A stretch of DNA of 64,000 nt from an uncultured Rhodospirillales bacterium (GTDB lineage Bacteria > Pseudomonadota > Alphaproteobacteria > UBA9219 > RGZA01). A model generated the notes under the pieces. It was not told the origin of the DNA, searched no databases, and saw nothing but the letters and a program-made list of their open reading frames with translations. Below are positions 2 through 55,172 of this stretch, piece after piece. The number at the start of each line of letters is the position of its first letter. The first letter of the stretch is position 1. Position numbers and translations under genes: made by a program. The stretch is taken from assembly GCA_964568585.1 (NCBI GenBank), contig CAZMQI010000004.1, forward strand, positions 11,312-75,311, written 5' to 3'.

Positions 2-715
2 ATCATTAATGAGAACGATACCGTCAGCACCGCTGAAATCCGCATCGGCGATAATGACCGTTTGGCAGCACGCGTCGCACAGATGATGAGCGCGGACACG
101 CTTATTCTATTGTCGGATATCGATGGATTATATACGGCAGATCCCAAAACCAATCCATCCGCCACCTTCATTCCTGAAGTTAAAGAAATCACCGCCGATA
201 TCGAAGCCATGGCCGGTGACCCACAACCGGGCATCAGCAGTGGCGGCATGAAAACCAAAATCATGGCGGCAAAAATCGCCGTCACATCCGGTTGCCGCAT
301 GGCTATTTTAAAAGGCACCGAAGAAAATCCGCTACGCAAATTGGATGAAGGCACATTGCGCTGCACATGGTTCACGCCATCCACTACACCACTTGCCGCG
401 CGCAAGCGGTGGATTGCCGCGCATATGAGCATGAAGGGTGCCATCATCATCGATGATGGCGCGGTTAAAGCATTACAAGATGGGCGCAGCCTGTTACCCG
501 CTGGCGTCAAATCCTGCGAAGGCGTGTTTGCATCGGGTGATGCTGTGGCAATCAAAACCTTATCCGGCCAAAGCATTGGTTGCGGGCTCATCGCCTTTGA
601 CCGTGATGAGGCCGATAAAATCTGCGGCAAGCGCAGCGATGATATCGAACGCCTGCTGGGCTATGCGGGCCAAGAAGAAATGATCCACCGCGACAATATG
701 GTCATCAATAAATAA
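2..715 (+). CDS. proB: glutamate 5-kinase, C-terminal part (gene starts upstream of window)
   Basis: Frame 2 is open from the window edge. The translation (IINENDTVSTAEIRIGDNDRLAARVAQMMSADTLILLSDIDGLYTADP...GGMKTKIMAAKIA) matches the amino-acid kinase core, and the PUA-like C-terminus matches ProB. proA lies downstream. Confidence 0.85.
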   Translation: MINENDTVSTAEIRIGDNDRLAARVAQMMSADTLILLSDIDGLYTADPKTNPSATFIPEVKEITADIEAMAGDPQPGISSGGMKTKIMAAKIAVTSGCRMAILKGTEENPLRKLDEGTLRCTWFTPSTTPLAARKRWIAAHMSMKGAIIIDDGAVKALQDGRSLLPAGVKSCEGVFASGDAVAIKTLSGQSIGCGLIAFDRDEADKICGKRSDDIERLLGYAGQEEMIHRDNMVINK

Positions 716-11365: not shown

Positions 11366-12189
11366 ACGGCTGTGGCTTTTTTGATTTTGGTATAGGCATC
11401 ATTGATGAGGACAGTTTTCTCCTGCGCGCGCTGTAACGCAAAGGTATTGCGCCCTTGCCAGCGGTCGGGATGAAATTCCTGAATTAGGCGCTTATACGCC
11501 TTGGCCGCTGCGTCAACGCCAGCACCAGTTGGCAGCCCCAATATCTGATACGGATCATATAGCGCATCAGGTAGATAGCCTTTAATCGTAGCTAAAGCTG
11601 CAAAATCATCGGGGTCGTAATTCAACTTGGCCGCGATTTGCTCCAGCGTCGCCATCGTTGCGCGGTCAAGGTGATGATGGCCTTCCACCGCTAAATCCAG
11701 AAGGCATGCCAGCATCGCGTGAAGTTTTTCGGGTTTGCCTGCGCCTTCAATCCGCAATTGCGTCAATGCATAATTCACTTCGGAAGTCGCCGCAGCATCC
11801 GCCGCAACAATACGCCCTATGTAACGCAACGTGGATGCGTTCAGCACATAGGAATTTTTTAAAATAGCGATGGCACGTGCAGGTTTTGAAAGCGCGGGGA
11901 ATGCATAGGCCTTGGCCAGCATCACCAATGCCACGACTGTCGGCGCATCATGCGTCTTGGGTGGCGCAATGGCTTTAGGAGGTGCTTGGTGTTTACCCGA
12001 CAATAAAAATCCCCATACATCAAATGCCAAACCAGCGACAATGCCGATGAATGTGCCCCACACGCCCCAGAATGTGAACGCCGCAAGGCCAACGCCAGCG
12101 CCAATCAGTTTACCCTTATGATGATGATATGGGAAATTTTTTAAACGAATTGCGTTCACTAAATCAAGCTCGTCAGCTGAATGTGCCAA
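11362..12189 (-). CDS. djlA: DjlA-like membrane co-chaperone (N-terminal TM, TerB-like middle region, C-terminal J domain)
   Basis: The C-terminus (DPYQILGLPTGAGVDAAAKAYKRLIQEFHPDRW) is a J domain carrying the HPD motif. Hydrophobic N-terminus. 4-bp overlap with amiD. Confidence 0.7.
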   Translation of the reverse strand: MAHSADELDLVNAIRLKNFPYHHHKGKLIGAGVGLAAFTFWGVWGTFIGIVAGLAFDVWGFLLSGKHQAPPKAIAPPKTHDAPTVVALVMLAKAYAFPALSKPARAIAILKNSYVLNASTLRYIGRIVAADAAATSEVNYALTQLRIEGAGKPEKLHAMLACLLDLAVEGHHHLDRATMATLEQIAAKLNYDPDDFAALATIKGYLPDALYDPYQILGLPTGAGVDAAAKAYKRLIQEFHPDRWQGRNTFALQRAQEKTVLINDAYTKIKKATAV

Positions 12190-42024: not shown

Positions 42025-42966
42025 ATGACCATTACGCCCAAAAAAATTGCTGTCCTGCTGGGTGGCTGGTCGGCTGAGCGCGAAGTATCGCTGACCGGTG
42101 GCGCATTAATCGTTGAAGCGTTGAAAAGCCTTGGCCACCAAGTTAGTGCGATTGATGTGCAACGCGATCTGGTTGGATTATTGCAATCGATTTTACAACA
42201 CCCGATGGGTAAGCCTGATGTCATCTTCAACGCACTGCACGGGCGCGGCGGCGAAGATGGGTGTATTCAAGGCGTTCTGGAATTTCTTGGCATTCCCTAT
42301 ACCCATTCCGGCGTTTTATGCTCCGCAATGTGTATGGATAAGCCGACCGCCAAAAAAATCGTATCGTCCTTTGGCGTGCGCTGCCCCGAGGGCAAGGTGA
42401 TGACGCGTGACGAAATTTTAAAAAACGGATTTCCATTCGAAGCACCGTTTGTCATCAAACCCACCAATGAAGGTTCCAGCGTTGGCGTGCATATCGTACG
42501 CAAAGGCGAGAATTTCGATATTGCAAGAGAAGGCTGGGTTTACGGCCATGAAGTATTGGTGGAACGCTATATCCCTGGCCGCGAATTGACCGTTGGATTA
42601 CTTGGCGGCAAGGCAATGATGGTAACCGAAATCAAATTCACCGCAGATTTTTATGATTACACCGTGAAATATACTGCTGGCCATTCAACGCATGATTGCC
42701 CTGCACATATTCCGCTTGCCGTTGAAAAGGAAGCGATGCGTATGGCCGAAGTTGCCTATGCCGCGCTTGGATGCAATGGCGCGGCACGTATCGATTTGCG
42801 TTTTGATGAAAGCCGCAAAGAATCCGAAAGCCTGTACTTCCTTGAAATGAATAATCAGCCGGGCTTTACGCCCATGTCGCTTGTTCCGGAACAAGCAGCT
42901 GCAAAGGGCATGCCTTACGCACAATTGTGTCAGTGGATCATCGACCATCCTATCCAACCAGATTAA
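42025..42966 (+). CDS. ddl: D-alanine--D-alanine ligase
   Basis: 313 aa, ATP-grasp fold. N-terminus KIAVLLGGWSAEREVSL, then GEDGCIQGVLEFLGIPYTHSG. Confidence 0.9.
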   Translation: MTITPKKIAVLLGGWSAEREVSLTGGALIVEALKSLGHQVSAIDVQRDLVGLLQSILQHPMGKPDVIFNALHGRGGEDGCIQGVLEFLGIPYTHSGVLCSAMCMDKPTAKKIVSSFGVRCPEGKVMTRDEILKNGFPFEAPFVIKPTNEGSSVGVHIVRKGENFDIAREGWVYGHEVLVERYIPGRELTVGLLGGKAMMVTEIKFTADFYDYTVKYTAGHSTHDCPAHIPLAVEKEAMRMAEVAYAALGCNGAARIDLRFDESRKESESLYFLEMNNQPGFTPMSLVPEQAAAKGMPYAQLCQWIIDHPIQPD

Positions 42967-42972
42967 CGCTGC

Positions 42973-43824
42973 ATGAAACGCAAAGTTGTTATTCGTCGTT
43001 CAAAGCCAAGACCCGCACCCCGTTCCACGGAAACGGTGTGGAATTGGCGTTCGACTGCGCTAGCCGCCAGCGTGTTTTTAGTATTGGGATTATTGGTCAG
43101 CGGATTATTGCTGTGGCGTTCGGGCTGGTTTCAAAAACAAGCTGAACTGATTACGGCCAGCAGCCTTGAGCTAACCCGCAAAGCAGGTTTTTCGGTTGAG
43201 GACATTCTGGTCGAAGGCCGCAGCCAAACCGATAAAGAACAGATTGTCAGCGTGCTGCAGGTTGAAAAGGGTTCCCCTATTCTTGCATTCAATCCGCATG
43301 ATGCATTGAAACGTCTTGGCGATATTTCATGGGTAAAAAGCGGTGTCGTTGAACGCCGTTTGCCAAGCACGATTTTCGTGCGGCTATATGAACGCGAGCC
43401 AATCGCCATCTGGCAGAACAAACACATCATCAAACTGATTGATGCGGAAGGCCATGTGCTTCGTGACTTAGGCGATGATGAACCCGTGCGCTATCCGCTA
43501 GTGGTGGGTGAAGGTGCAAATACCCATGTAGCCGAGCTTTTAATCCAGCTGCGGCAATATCCATCGGTACTGACACCGCTCACCTCAGCCGTGCGCGTTT
43601 CCAACCGCCGCTGGGATTTGCACATGAACAATAATATCATCGTGAAGCTGCCGGAAGAGAACGTAGCAGCCGCATTGGACCGCTTGTATAAAGCCATTAC
43701 CGAACAACATATTATGGAGCGCAACATCGTTGCACTGGATTTACGCCTGCCAGACCGTATGATTATCGAGACCAACGACCCGATTGAACAACCTAAAGCC
43801 ACCAAGTCAGCCCCCAAGATATAG
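42973..43824 (+). CDS. ftsQ: cell division protein FtsQ
   Basis: Basic N-terminus and single TM, followed by the POTRA and FtsQ beta domains. Sits between ddl and ftsA. Confidence 0.85.
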   Translation: MKRKVVIRRSKPRPAPRSTETVWNWRSTALAASVFLVLGLLVSGLLLWRSGWFQKQAELITASSLELTRKAGFSVEDILVEGRSQTDKEQIVSVLQVEKGSPILAFNPHDALKRLGDISWVKSGVVERRLPSTIFVRLYEREPIAIWQNKHIIKLIDAEGHVLRDLGDDEPVRYPLVVGEGANTHVAELLIQLRQYPSVLTPLTSAVRVSNRRWDLHMNNNIIVKLPEENVAAALDRLYKAITEQHIMERNIVALDLRLPDRMIIETNDPIEQPKATKSAPKI

Positions 43825-43835
43825 CGGATTAGCCA

Positions 43836-45110
43836 ATGGCCAATGATAACAATCAAAACACGCGCAAACGTTCAAACACCAAAGGCGATATCCTTGCCGC
43901 GCTTGATATTGGCACCAGCAAGATCTGCTGCTTCATCGCACGCGCGACGGAAGAAGGTGGCACGCGCGTTATCGGTATTGGCCATCACATCTCCCAAGGT
44001 GTGAAGGGCGGCAATATCGTGGACGTGGAAGCCGCGCAAAGCGCCATCAACGCGACGCTTGATAATGCCGAAGAAGTTGCCGGTGAAAAAATCAGCCGCG
44101 TCATCGTGAATTTCTCAGGGGGCAAACTGGCATCGCACCATGCCGACATCCACATCAATCTGAATGGCCGCGAAGCAAGCGACTATGACATTGAACGTGC
44201 CTTGGCGATGGGCCAGCAGGAAAATCTGGCGGAAGGCTCGGAGCTTATTCATTTAGTGCCAACCGATTTTTCGATTGATGGCCAGAATGGGATTAGAGAT
44301 CCGCGCGGGATGATTGGCGATAATTTGAATGCGAAATTGCACATGGTTTCGGCTCATTACGCCCCTATCCGTACCCTGTTATCTGCACTGCAACGCTGCC
44401 ATCTTCAGGTGAGCGATGTAGTTGTATCACCATACGCCAGCGGACTTGCATGTCTGGTGGACGATGAAATGGAATTGGGCGCAACGCTAATTGATATGGG
44501 CGGCGGCACAACAACCTTTGCATTATTCAATGATAAACAGATGGTACACGCCGATAGCATCCCCATTGGCGGCATGCATGTGACGAATGATATTGCGCGT
44601 GGTCTTACTACGCCCGTCAATCACGCCGAACGCCTCAAAACACTTTTTGGAAATGCACTGTCCAGCTCATCCGATGAGCGCGAGATGATTGACGTGCCGC
44701 AAGTCGGCGAAGAAGCACCCGAACATGCAAACCATATTCCGAAATCGCATCTCATCCGCATTATCGGCCCACGCCTTGAAGAAACATTCGAACATCTGCG
44801 CGACCGATTGAAGGTTGCGGAAAGCAGCGTTGCAGTTAATCGCCGCGTGGTGTTGACGGGCGGCGCATGCCAATTGCCGGGCATTCGTGAAATGGCGCAA
44901 CGTATTCTGGATAAACAAGTTCGCATTGGCCGCCCTTATCGCTTGCAAGGCCTCAGCGATAATGCATCCGGCCCGGCCTTCGCCACGATTGCAGGATTGC
45001 TGGCCTATGCCACCAACCCCGAAGCAAGCATGCCGCGCTTTGGTCAGGATTTGAGTGCGAACCAAGGGTTCTTCGACCGCATCGGCGGCTGGCTGAGAAA
45101 CGCTATCTAA
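43836..45110 (+). CDS. ftsA: cell division protein FtsA
   Basis: Actin-like ATPase (LDIGTSKICCFIA, DMGGGTTT). Confidence 0.9.
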   Translation: MANDNNQNTRKRSNTKGDILAALDIGTSKICCFIARATEEGGTRVIGIGHHISQGVKGGNIVDVEAAQSAINATLDNAEEVAGEKISRVIVNFSGGKLASHHADIHINLNGREASDYDIERALAMGQQENLAEGSELIHLVPTDFSIDGQNGIRDPRGMIGDNLNAKLHMVSAHYAPIRTLLSALQRCHLQVSDVVVSPYASGLACLVDDEMELGATLIDMGGGTTTFALFNDKQMVHADSIPIGGMHVTNDIARGLTTPVNHAERLKTLFGNALSSSSDEREMIDVPQVGEEAPEHANHIPKSHLIRIIGPRLEETFEHLRDRLKVAESSVAVNRRVVLTGGACQLPGIREMAQRILDKQVRIGRPYRLQGLSDNASGPAFATIAGLLAYATNPEASMPRFGQDLSANQGFFDRIGGWLRNAI

Positions 45111-45116
45111 GATTTT

Positions 45117-45437
45117 TTAAATTGTCATATTGAGGGTGATGCCTACGGCGTTCGCGCCGCGTCCATCCGCTTTCAAACTGCGTTTAATCTCGTCCGCGAT
45201 TTGTTGTTCAACCTTTTTCTGCTCGTCGGGCAGCATGGCCTTTAAGCTTTCTTCGGTCATGTTATGGGCGCGCAGATATTTGTAGCGGATTTTGTCGGCT
45301 ACCGACATCTGGGAATATTTTACCAGTTCCTCGGCAGGGTTGGCCTTGTCCGCCGCGCTTTTGGCAAGGGCGGAAGTACTGGTTTTACCCGTATAATAGC
45401 TACCGGCGTTAGTAATGCCTGATATTGCACTGGTCAT
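45117..45437 (-). CDS. hypothetical small protein encoded antisense in the ftsA-ftsZ intergenic region
   Basis: Non-repetitive, protein-like ORF. An internal ATG (the codon ending at 45437) is preceded by a perfect GGAGG Shine-Dalgarno with a 5-nt spacer, giving a 106-aa product (MTSAISGITNAGSYY...). The ORF-track start at 45449 is 4 codons upstream. Confidence 0.55.
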   Translation of the reverse strand: MTSAISGITNAGSYYTGKTSTSALAKSAADKANPAEELVKYSQMSVADKIRYKYLRAHNMTEESLKAMLPDEQKKVEQQIADEIKRSLKADGRGANAVGITLNMTI

Positions 45438-45659
45438 AACAACCTCCATGCGCGTGATGCGCTACCCCTTACAAAGCATATTTTGTGCCAAATATAGGCC
45501 ATGGCTGGCTGCCACAAAAATACCCAGATGAAAGCTAACCACCGGCCAATATGTTAAGGGTTTCAGCCAATCATTACGCAAATCAGTTGATTTGGCCTTG
45601 CTTCGAATCCGAGCCGCGGTTTAGCGTTTGGGTCTGATTCAAAAGAAGGATTCATCAGA

Positions 45660-47360
45660 ATGATTCAAATTACAGTTCCAGAAATGCAAACCCAACTCCG
45701 CCCACGTATCACCGTTTTTGGTGTTGGCGGCGCAGGCGGCAATGCGGTGAATAATATGATCCGCTCCAATCTGGAAGGCGTTGAATTCGTGGTTGCCAAT
45801 TCCGATGCACAATCGCTTTCAAGCAATCTGTCCGAACGCAAATTGCAACTGGGCGTGAATTTGACCCGTGGCCTTGGCGCAGGTGCAAAACCCGATGTAG
45901 GCAGAGCATCAGCAGAAGAACAAATCGATGAAATCAACGCGTACTTGGAAGGCACCAACATGGCCTTCATCACCGCAGGTATGGGCGGCGGCACAGGTAC
46001 TGGCGCAGCGCCCGTGATTGCCAGAGCAGCACGCGAACACGGTATTCTGACCGTTGGCGTTGTGACCAAGCCATTCCACTTCGAAGGTTCACATCGCATG
46101 CGTATGGCCGAAGCCGGTATCGCCGAATTGCAACAATATGTCGATACACTGATTATTATTCCAAATCAAAACCTGTTCAGAATTGCGAATGAAAAAACAA
46201 CCTTCGCCGATGCATTCCGCATGGCTGACGAAGTGCTCCATTCCGGCGTACGTGGCGTGACTGATTTGATGGTTATGCCTGGTTTGATTAACTTAGACTT
46301 TGCCGACATCCGCTCCGTGATGAGCGAAATGGGCAAAGCAATGATGGGCACTGGCGAAGCAACCGGCGAAAAACGTTCGGTGAATGCAGCAGAAGCCGCG
46401 ATTGCAAATCCATTGCTTGATGATGTGTCGATGAAGGGCGCACGTGGTGTGCTCATCAACATCACCGGCGGTTATGATATGACCCTGTTCGAAGTTGATG
46501 AAGCCGCAAACCGTATCCGCGAAGAAGTTGACCCAGATGCCAATATCATCTTCGGTTCGACCTTCGAAGAAAAGATGGATGGCCGCATGCGCGTTTCCGT
46601 CGTTGCAACCGGTATTGACGCCGCAGCAGAAATGCCGCGCAGCCAAGCCGTGAGCATGGCAGGGTTGAATGCTTCGAAATTCCGCGCAGCAGAAACCCAA
46701 GCACCACAGCAAGCATCCTTCAATGGTGGCTTCACCGCGCCAGCTGCAGCACAGCAGCATGCACAGCGTCAACAGTCCCAACAGCCAGCGGCATCGTTCT
46801 ATAACCAACAGCCCGCACAACCGCAGCAGCAAGCTCAACAGCCAGTGGCACAGCCTTCATTCTCTTCGCCGTTCACATGGGGCGCGCCAAAGCAATCCCA
46901 ACAGCCAAGCATCTCGTCGCAAAGCGCCGCGCTTGACCAATTGCTGGAACGTGCCAAGCAAGCTGAAAGCATCATGAACCAGGCAACTGCCGCTGAACAA
47001 CAACAGCAAGCGCCACAACCTGTACAACAACCAACATCGATTTCATTTGGTCAACCAGTTCCACAGGCGGCTCCACAACCCCAATTCCCGCAAGCACAGC
47101 AACAACAGCAAGCACCTTTTGTACACGTACAGGCTCCTGCTGCTGAAAAGCAGAACACCAAGCGCAGCAGCTCGCTGTTTGCACGTATCGCGGAGTTTGG
47201 CGGCGGCAAGCGTGATACCCAATCGGCACCGGCTGAACAACAGCAACAATCACAAGCACCATCCAAGGAATTGGGTGTGAATGCATCGGATCGTCCACGT
47301 CTTTCTTCGGAAGAAGAAACACTGGAAATTCCGGCGTTCTTGCGTCGCCAATCGAACTAA
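45660..47360 (+). CDS. ftsZ: cell division GTPase FtsZ with long Gln/Pro-rich C-terminal linker and conserved C-terminal peptide
   Basis: Tubulin signature GGGTGTG and the T7 loop. The ~220-aa Q/P/A-rich linker ends with [12 protein letters not shown]. Confidence 0.95.
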
Positions 47361-47575: not shown

Positions 47576-48547
47576 ATGTTGGGCGATTTGCCACCACTCC
47601 TTACCTCACCCGTGCTTTCACGCACGCAAAAAACACTGGCAAGTGCATTGTCATGTGAAGGCGAAGGTGTGCACAACGGGAAATCGGTGCGCGTCTCCAT
47701 TCAACCTGCTCCTGCTAATTACGGCATCCAGTTCGAACGTACGGATGTAAAAGTTAAAACCAATATCATCCCCGCAATCTGGAGCGGTGTGCGTGTAACG
47801 CCGCTATGCACCCAAATCCTGAATAGCGATGGAATTGAAGTACGCACCATCGAACATTTGATGGCAGCACTGTTCGCCAGCGGCATTGATAACGCACACA
47901 TCACCATCAGCGGTGCGGAAATGCCGATTATGGATGGAAGCTCGTTGCCATTCCTGCACATGATTGCGGGTGTGGGTGTTGTGGATTGCGGAAATACACC
48001 GCGCGAATTCATCAAAATCATCAAACCCATTGAAGCAAAGCAAGGCGATGCCTATGCACGGTTATTGCCTGCATCCTCTCCCCGCTTCAGCGTGACGGTT
48101 GCTTATCCGCAGCATAATGTAGGCGAACAGCAAGCTACGTTCGATTTCGAAGATGGCAATTTCATCAAGGATATCGCAAGTGCGCGTACCTTCGGCTTTA
48201 AAACCGATTTGGAATATCTGCACGCCAAGGGCCTCGCGCTGGGTGGTAATTTCAGCAATGCGATTTTAATTAATGCCGAAGGGAAGATTATGAACCCTGG
48301 TGGCTATCGCTCCCCCAATGAACTGGCACGCCACAAGTTGCTGGACGCTGTGGGTGATATTGCGCTGGCTGGCAGCATCATCCTTGGTCATATGGATAGC
48401 AACCGTTCGGGTCATACACTCAACAATGCGCTGCTTCGCGCCTTATTCGCGGACGCAACCGCATATACCAAAGTCGAGCTGCCGAATGCCTTGGGCGAAT
48501 CATTGGACTTTGCTCCCACACGCTCTGAAACAACTGTTTCTGTATAA
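47576..48547 (+). CDS. lpxC: UDP-3-O-acyl-N-acetylglucosamine deacetylase
   Basis: Aligns to LpxC from QKTLASALSCEGEGVHNGKSVRVSIQPAPANYG onward, with the HKxLD motif (RHKLLDAVGD). The true start may be GTG 47612, which gives MLSRTQKTL. Confidence 0.85.
   Translation: MLGDLPPLLTSPVLSRTQKTLASALSCEGEGVHNGKSVRVSIQPAPANYGIQFERTDVKVKTNIIPAIWSGVRVTPLCTQILNSDGIEVRTIEHLMAALFASGIDNAHITISGAEMPIMDGSSLPFLHMIAGVGVVDCGNTPREFIKIIKPIEAKQGDAYARLLPASSPRFSVTVAYPQHNVGEQQATFDFEDGNFIKDIASARTFGFKTDLEYLHAKGLALGGNFSNAILINAEGKIMNPGGYRSPNELARHKLLDAVGDIALAGSIILGHMDSNRSGHTLNNALLRALFADATAYTKVELPNALGESLDFAPTRSETTVSV

Positions 48548-49575: not shown

Positions 49576-55172
<5,597 letters not shown>

Follow-up and report, generated by a model that had tools for sequence, protein, structure and literature searches.

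A small gene on the strand opposite to ftsA and ftsZ lies in the gap between these two division genes in an uncultured Rhodospirillales bacterium (GCA_964568585.1, contig CAZMQI010000004.1). Within the 64,000-nucleotide (nt) stretch analyzed here, hereafter the window, this 106-aa open reading frame (ORF) is, with a probability that we put at about 0.7, a genuine gene of an unnamed, sigma-54-promoted alphaproteobacterial family, which sits between ftsA and ftsZ as a lineage-specific cassette. The original prediction, made from the sequence alone, had described a minus-strand ORF at 45117-45437 with GGAGG 5 nt before its ATG in a gap of 550 bp; the sequence and the ORF list agree with this description, and the coordinates give a gap of 549 nt. 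The predicted orientation, convergent with ftsA and divergent from ftsZ, is borne out by the coordinates and by the orthologous loci. The core features are:

45117..45437, minus strand: coding sequence of the 106-aa small protein (ATG at 45437, stop codon TAA at 45117-45119), based on orthologues, the ratio of nonsynonymous to synonymous substitution rates (dN/dS), an AlphaFold model, and a family hidden Markov model (HMM)
45443..45447, minus strand: Shine-Dalgarno (SD) sequence GGAGG, followed by TTGTT and the ATG at 45437 (5-nt spacing)
45450..45462, minus strand: hairpin GCGC-AUCAC-GCGC in the 5' untranslated region (UTR), between the predicted transcription start and the SD sequence
45475..45490, minus strand: sigma-54-type element TGGCAC-AAAAT-ATGCT, with the GG of -24 at 45488-45489 and the GC of -12 at 45476-45477
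43836-45110, plus strand: ftsA (ORF list; Pfam FtsA/SHS2_FTSA on orthologues)
45660-47360, plus strand: ftsZ, divergent from the small gene

Conservation of the small gene

Judged by its pattern of substitution, the ORF is a genuine gene under purifying selection. A search of 5.8 billion proteins returned five homologous clusters with identities of 100, 67, 51, 52, and 49% to the small protein, and orthologues with 49–67% identity, which represent four further sequence types, are found in five other metagenomic loci (L001, L005, L006, L007, and L008). L008 comes from a GTDB genome, and scanning GTDB genomes with the close alignment added only one more locus. GCA_033762625.1 and JAKFVN01 are further metagenome-assembled genomes with the gene. 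On every contig that can be read, the homologue occupies the ftsA-ftsZ gap in antisense orientation, convergent with ftsA. The Nei-Gojobori dN/dS of the codon-aligned orthologues is 0.12–0.38. Third codon positions dominate the differences (for example, 3/6/26 and 36/25/49 at positions 1/2/3), changing 1.3–9 times as frequently as first or second positions, and the indels among orthologues are in-frame. GGAG is kept 5–6 nt before the ATG in all orthologues. Two of the checks proposed with the original prediction, a homologue search for the 106-aa product and a comparison of the ftsA-ftsZ junction in relatives, thus favored a real gene: the former yielded homologues and a large profile-defined family, and the latter found the frame and the antisense position kept in five further loci.

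Between two sub-clades, the synonymous divergence (dS) of the small gene is 1.1–1.5, matching that of the flanking ftsA (1.10–1.13), and the small gene is therefore as old as the divergence of these genomes. Its nonsynonymous divergence (dN) is about 0.35 compared to 0.04 for ftsA, i.e., about 9-fold higher. Among orthologues, 36–44 of the 61 residues in the helical core (33-93) and 10–20 of the 32 residues in the N-terminal tail are kept. An alternative in-frame ATG at 45449, which would give 110 aa, overlaps the GGAGG; since all homologues begin with M(T/S)SAI and are 103–106 aa long, the start is placed at 45437.

A sigma-54-type promoter as a family trait

The sequence TGGCACAAAATATGCT (45475-45490, minus strand) matches the consensus TGGCAC-N5-TTGCW at 6/6 positions of the -24 half and 4/5 of the -12 half, with the N10 spacing from GG to GC that defines -24/-12 promoters. 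It lies 53 nt before the ATG in the window and 52–64 nt before it in all six orthologous loci. Among the five distinct sequences, 11 of the 16 columns are invariant, including 10 of the 11 consensus positions; the one consensus position that varies (the sixth) is C or T, both of which are allowed, and four of the five spacer positions vary. Transcription is predicted to start near 45464. The degenerate pattern TGGCAY-N5-WTGCW has four matches in the window versus 1.0 expected, and only the one at the small gene is intergenic. The other matches, at 428-443 (-), 11918-11933 (-), and 50906-50921 (+), lie inside coding sequences (antisense in proB, sense in a DnaJ-domain gene, and sense in recN, respectively) and were taken as chance. 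A promoter scan, which covered the sigma-70 consensus only, found no sigma-70 promoter.

The element also precedes distant family members in unrelated loci, which argues for sigma-54 control as a family trait that the window gene would have inherited, together with a presumed dependence on sigma-54 in vivo. The distant sample comprised 28 loci of other lineages, of which 25 came from a metagenome scan and three were L009–L011, then L040–L042, and then a copy from Agrobacterium, and an element was accepted at ≥9/11 consensus matches upstream of the apparent start. It was present in 26 of the 28 loci, always within 115 nt of the start and mostly 40–80 nt before it, and in all three of L040–L042 at -50 to -66 (L041, which encodes a long form of the protein, has it at -54), giving 29 of 32 distant members overall. 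The upstream regions hold 28 matches in 9.8 kb compared to 27 in 260 kb-strand from the remainder of these loci (0.10 per kb-strand), an enrichment of about 28-fold. Among the exceptions, L011 has the near-match TCGCAC-N5-TTGCA, and the flank of L035 is truncated, but its orthologues have the element. The copy on plasmid pR76 of Agrobacterium pusense (L043 4776-5207, HQN82_RS24995) departs from the family rule: it lacks the conserved C-terminal tail, and no sigma-54-like element was found in the 300 nt upstream of it.

Transcription from sigma-54 promoters needs an ATP-dependent enhancer-binding activator. The small gene would be silent unless such an activator fires, and its expression would be conditional or developmental rather than housekeeping. 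The original prediction had located the promoter inside the ftsZ regulatory region; the gap does hold a probable promoter, which is separated by 170 nt from the ftsZ ATG and adjoins the ftsZ upstream block described below, and its sigma-54 type had been missed.

The 5' leader and the upstream spacer

The short 5' UTR opens with a hairpin, which may stabilize the 5' end of the mRNA or limit its translation. A hairpin stands at the equivalent place in every orthologue, with differing sequence and length: the stem has 4 bp in the window and about 8–11 bp plus flanking pairs in L007, L001, L005, and L006, and its 3' arm reaches the AGG of the SD sequence in L006 and L001. Several distant members have 5'-UTR hairpins that sequester the SD sequence through the anti-SD CUCCUC or CCUCCU (L036 142-185; L039 2028-2070; Caulobacter-type loci, e.g., L023 3878-3913), suggesting translational control on top of sigma-54 control in these members. 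Upstream of the promoter, the gap continues as follows:

45491..45544, no strand assigned: variable spacer, 6/54 columns invariant among five loci
45545..45565, no strand assigned: conserved element GCCAATATGTTAAGGGTTTCA (plus strand), 15/21 columns invariant, mainly in gene-carrying loci

A terminator-like hairpin with a T-run on the minus strand (45499-45517) lies within the variable spacer; it is the only terminator-like site found in the scan and is not conserved elsewhere. The GCCAATATGTTAAGGGTTTCA element together with the GCCAAT that follows it contains two GCCAAT half-sites 21 nt apart, and it aligns weakly to L013, a relative that lacks the small gene. For the small gene, this conserved element could serve as an activator or architectural site.

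The protein and its family

The small protein consists of a disordered Ser/Thr/Gly-rich N-terminal tail (1-32), a four-helix core (about 33-93), and a short C-terminal tail that ends in hydrophobic-x-A/I; the AlphaFold model gives the four-helix core a predicted local distance difference test (pLDDT) score of 85–92. A profile of the five orthologues was run against 1.84 billion cluster representatives at the 50%-identity level and found 578 proteins at E ≤ 1e-3, 29 of which are at ≤ 1e-10. Most members are 100–170 aa long, and some of 250–290 aa have additional sequence at the N-terminus. The core, about 60 residues long and roughly EFLKYxxMSPAEKIRxxYLxxHGLTEEDLKAMxPEERxKIExxIxxxIK in an alignment of 49 members, resembles two copies of an "M-S/T-P-x-E-K/R + helix" unit, as in helix-hairpin repeats. 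Many members have common N-terminal residues, MSISSIGS or MTSAISG (general form M-S/T-x-I/V-S-S/G), and a common C-terminal end, G-h-x-(D/N)-h-x-(A/V). The window ORF matches the family HMM at E = 1.5e-33 and combines the core profile match with the N-terminal peptide and the hydrophobic C-terminal end.

The members with named sources are from Caulobacter (C. segnis WP_013078582.1, C. vibrioides OR37 WP_004622929.1, and many Caulobacter sp.), Ferrovibrio, Micavibrio metagenome-assembled genomes, and the Agrobacterium pusense plasmid, and all of them are annotated as "hypothetical protein." Scans of the small protein and the 49 family members against Pfam, NCBIfam, PHROGs, and PADLOC gave nothing above threshold, and no match to a PDB structure or fold was found for the family. 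Sub-threshold Pfam matches among the 49 members were to CSTF_C (10 members, best E 1.4e-4), DUF1104 (7), and DUF3106 (3); the window protein itself did not match DUF3106, DUF1104, or CSTF_C even below threshold. These families, like Spy/CpxP proteins of the LTXXQ type, are helical "xPEE(R/K)" repeat proteins and share with the small protein charged helix-hairpin repeats opened by S/T-P-x-E. However, they are periplasmic or eukaryotic, whereas the small protein has no signal peptide. The likeness to DUF3106, DUF1104, and CSTF_C is probably compositional, and the small protein is probably cytoplasmic. Its conserved termini suggest docking motifs, and one may conjecture that the non-polar C-terminal end in A resembles a protease-recognition tail. 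Within a sigma-54 program, the small product could act as a binding or adaptor protein, perhaps a short-lived one.

Some loci depart from the single short gene. Tandem paralogues occur in L012 (4530-4988 and 4992-5378, with HMM E-values of 9e-15 and 2.7e-23), followed by another small ORF without a Pfam match. The long forms (P0073, P0086, P0088, and P0175, the last being L041 4001-4855) have an N-terminal region of about 150–200 residues, also without a Pfam match, which is common to several of them and carries the motif ...VNG..VA.....G......A.......LP...

Probable gain of the cassette and genomic contexts of the family

Two closely related loci, L013/L014 (GCA_974479845.1 and a Joint Genome Institute contig), have FtsA and FtsZ 89.6% and 89.2% identical to those of the window, respectively, and belong to the same 90% FtsA cluster. 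The ftsA-ftsZ gap of L013 is 117 nt and lacks the small gene, and no family member was found in the 9 kb read of L013/L014. BLAST aligns the L013 gap region to window positions 45566-45718 at 84% identity, of which 45566-45659 is gap, and MAFFT extends a weaker similarity back to about 45554. The remaining features of the region are:

45111..45553, no strand assigned: module of ~440 nt absent from L013/L014, comprising the gene, 5' UTR, sigma-54 element, and spacer (right border uncertain, 45536-45566)
45566..45625, plus strand: ancestral ftsZ upstream block, 56/60 columns invariant among five loci at a dS of about 1.1 (near saturation)
42025-42966: ddl
42973-43824: ftsQ
47576-48547: lpxC

To our knowledge, the order ftsQ-ftsA-ftsZ without intervening genes is the general rule, and the parsimonious reading is therefore that a single small clade of uncultured Alphaproteobacteria gained the cassette in its common ancestor; loss of the cassette in the sister lineage is a possible alternative polarity. 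On the former reading, a self-contained cassette of promoter, hairpin, SD sequence, and gene would have come between ftsA and ftsZ, upstream of a pre-existing ftsZ control region. A minus-strand TGGCAC in the L013 gap was considered as a relic of a lost promoter and ruled out, as it aligns with a GCCAAT half-site of the ancestral block. The surrounding division and cell-wall cluster is canonical for Alphaproteobacteria (murC, murB, ddl, ftsQ, ftsA, ftsZ, lpxC, a BamD-like gene, recN, and ligA), with labels from the ORF list and from Pfam labels taken from orthologous loci.

Elsewhere, the family occupies quite different positions. In the Caulobacter-type loci (L018, L022, L023, L027, L028, L030, and L033), the family gene lies between tatC and scpB and is convergent with scpB, the stops being 0–4 nt apart or overlapping. 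It is convergent with parC in L010 (5001-7929), and other contexts are rplT/pheS, secG/pyrG, a site after rpsO, and sites near Rdx-family genes; the plasmid copy in A. pusense pR76 lies beside usg and groES-groEL. No functional neighbor is conserved across the family loci (about 12 other contexts), and the cassette thus behaves as a free-standing unit. The family gene stands tail-to-tail with a division or segregation gene in three independent placements (ftsA, scpB, and parC), which was judged post hoc and may be a coincidence.

The gene-less L013/L014 share the ftsZ upstream block, which is about 90% identical in L013; the block therefore does not depend on the small gene. It contains a 7-2-7 palindrome, CAAATCA-GT-TGATTTG, and one GANTC site, and its conservation goes far beyond what a simple promoter requires. 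An Rfam scan of 44900-45900 gave no match to any RNA family. GANTC sites are four times scarcer in the window than base composition predicts (62 compared to 249.5 expected). Four sites at 45605, 45636, 45649, and 45662 nevertheless fall within 62 nt around the ftsZ start codon, and this cluster is also found in L013, suggesting control of ftsZ by CcrM-type methylation. Methylation-sensitive control of ftsZ is known from Caulobacter.

Other observations on ftsZ concern its block and its coding sequence. The minus strand of the block has an IHF-like near-match, WATCAANNNNTTR. AATCATT (45569-45575) is the exact complement of AATGATT (45658-45664), which spans the ftsZ start codon; RNAalifold pairs the two (7 bp), and L013 keeps 6/7 pairs, two of them via one-sided G-U changes. 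The pairing might form a start-codon-sequestering structure, although the sequences vary too little to tell. The window FtsZ has 566 aa with a very long Gln/Pro/Ala-rich linker (residues about 330-515, window 46640-47200) before the C-terminal peptide EIPAFLRRQ, and several long spurious ORFs lie on the reverse strand of this low-complexity stretch.

Candidate activators and the Caulobacter programs

No activator with a GAFTGA motif was found in the 64-kb window or in any family locus. In distant family members of at least six independent lineages (L009, L010, L017–L034, L037, L038, and L042), a palindrome GGCA-N5-TGCC (≥7/8 matches) precedes the -24 element by 50–135 nt (up to about 165 nt in L042), at a density of 4.9 per kb upstream compared to 0.56 per kb in the background, i.e., about 9-fold. 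For instance, all Caulobacter-type loci have GGCAAGTTCTGCT at -91, and L037/L038 have paired sites at -83 and -52. The palindrome is absent from the window clade. It is a candidate enhancer for the activator, and it may resemble the "ftr" half-sites of FlbD.

Caulobacter has four such activator proteins, of which only FlbD and TacA bear the GAFTGA loop needed with sigma-54 (PMC10274813), and its sigma-54 promoters are restricted to FlbD-dependent late flagellar genes and TacA targets (PMC10274813, PMC12421884). Because the Caulobacter family members have the sigma-54 element, they would belong to one of two programs, the late-flagellar program of FlbD or the stalk and G1/S program of TacA.

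Alternative explanations

The ORF could in principle have arisen by chance within conserved, non-coding DNA that regulates ftsZ, but the codon-like substitution pattern and the relatives found by the profile search effectively refute this. A frame of at least 106 codons arises in 118 of 5,000 mononucleotide shuffles of the gap (2.4%), a length that is mildly unusual and proves little, so conservation decides whether the gene is real, and the lack of matches in curated families is likewise what a chance frame would give. In contrast, the in-frame indels, the hundreds of relatives at other genomic places, and the DNA of the gene region, which is less conserved than the true regulatory block, all speak against a chance frame. 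It is also quite improbable that the gene is real and the sigma-54-like motif is not its promoter, with the housekeeping or another sigma factor acting instead and the motif being an ftsZ-regulating site or a coincidence. The restriction of the promoter scan to the sigma-70 consensus, the imperfect -12 half (ATGCT), the three equally good and presumably chance matches within coding regions of the window, and the one family member entirely without the motif would fit such a case. However, properly spaced and oriented copies of the motif precede the gene at 29 of 32 loci unrelated to ftsZ, at about 28 times the background, the consensus positions are invariant within the clade while the spacer is variable, and the gene-less relative does without the motif, so ftsZ does not need it. 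There is only a slim chance that the flagellar apparatus exports the product or has it as a partner, with the disordered N-terminus as export signal and a meaningless position in the division cluster. The restriction of the Caulobacter sigma-54 promoters to the FlbD and TacA targets is in line with it, as are the order of a conserved extreme N-terminus, a disordered Ser/Thr/Gly-rich tail, and helices, and the SD-sequestering 5' hairpins of several members, which are reminiscent of the translational control of flagellins. Yet no family locus lies within a flagellar cluster, and no likeness to flagellar protein families was found in Pfam or NCBIfam.

A coupling to cell division, which the original prediction had proposed, is weighed mainly by geometry. 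The stops of the small gene and ftsA are 6 nt apart in the window and overlap by 4 nt in L005 and L006, and no terminator-like site was found between 44900 and 45117 on either strand; with no room and no signal for termination, antisense transcription into ftsA is predicted. When the promoter is on, transcription would run head-on into ftsA and meet any read-through from ftsA to ftsZ, which, speculatively, it could dampen as a side effect. We regard it as unlikely that the gene is a division-coupled regulator whose product binds a part of the divisome or whose antisense transcription or promoter tunes the FtsA:FtsZ ratio. Besides the convergent arrangement and the closeness of the promoter element to the ftsZ ATG, such a regulator would fit the stable placement across a clade with synonymous sites near saturation, the near-invariant ftsZ block 76–135 nt upstream of the promoter element, a typical enhancer distance, and the convergent placement on a chromosome-segregation gene in two other lineages (scpB in Caulobacter and parC in L010). 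On the other side, the sister lineage without the gene keeps the ftsZ block, most family contexts are unrelated housekeeping genes, no likeness to known divisome-binding proteins was found, and the protein changes at about 9 times the rate of FtsA and FtsZ, an uncommon pace for a partner of proteins so conserved. That the cassette was domesticated as a conditional brake or tuner of division, altering the supply of FtsA and FtsZ relative to each other and/or binding a divisome component, appears rather unlikely; firing of the activator would then send transcription head-on into ftsA and also leave the shared upstream region occupied. Neither homology to a divisome-associated regulator nor a family-wide linkage to division was found, the linkage to ftsA/ftsZ being confined to one clade. 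Of the original prediction, the protein-like gene preceded by an SD sequence has stood, with a conserved frame and SD sequence and purifying selection; coupling to division control has the head-on geometry and the nearby promoter in its favor, that is, position alone, and against it the gene-less relative that keeps the block and the distant members that lie elsewhere. A role in cell division is possible from geometry, and the small gene is not evidence for a new division regulator.

Significance and comparison with known systems

In our reading of a sigma-54-promoted, free-standing cassette, what is new is the family with its regulatory signature, as well as the unusual location. A widespread family with hundreds of representatives, including some in the model organism Caulobacter, is named by no curated database, and, with sigma-54 serving only FlbD and TacA there, it would offer a concrete, testable, and uncharacterized member of the Caulobacter cell-cycle regulons. 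The locus also departs from the ftsQ-ftsA-ftsZ order, which is otherwise rigid and rarely broken, and comes with a natural "empty-site" relative for comparing effects in cis. If there is no such effect, it would be a clean example of a promoter-plus-gene cassette settling in an essential operon with the control region undisturbed; if the cassette does act as a tuner, a developmental or environmental signal would be linked directly to cytokinesis in the window lineage.

Small proteins near division genes with plausibly conditional expression recall MciZ, SulA, SidA/DidA, KidO, and ZapA-type factors. However, no homology to any of these was found, the family lies mostly away from division genes, and the small protein has no membrane segment, unlike SidA/DidA. 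Antisense transcription at the ftsA-ftsZ junction of Escherichia coli was reportedly described by Dewar and Donachie in 1993 as stfZ, and here, too, an opposite-strand transcript at the ftsA/ftsZ boundary could interfere with division-gene expression. In contrast to stfZ, which is a non-coding antisense RNA over the ftsZ ribosome-binding region, the transcript in the window would encode a conserved protein, point away from ftsZ into the 3' end of ftsA, and start from a sigma-54-type promoter. We know of no counterpart to a sigma-54 gene inside a division cluster. The small protein has no sequence or fold relationship to the known targets of FlbD and TacA. The small gene nonetheless shares the -24/-12 architecture with GG-N10-GC of alphaproteobacterial sigma-54 genes, such as the Caulobacter class III/IV flagellar genes under FlbD and staR and spmX under TacA. 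Like them, it is a self-contained gene with its own promoter, its family occurs in Caulobacter, and several distant members have candidate palindromic sites 50–135 nt upstream of -24.

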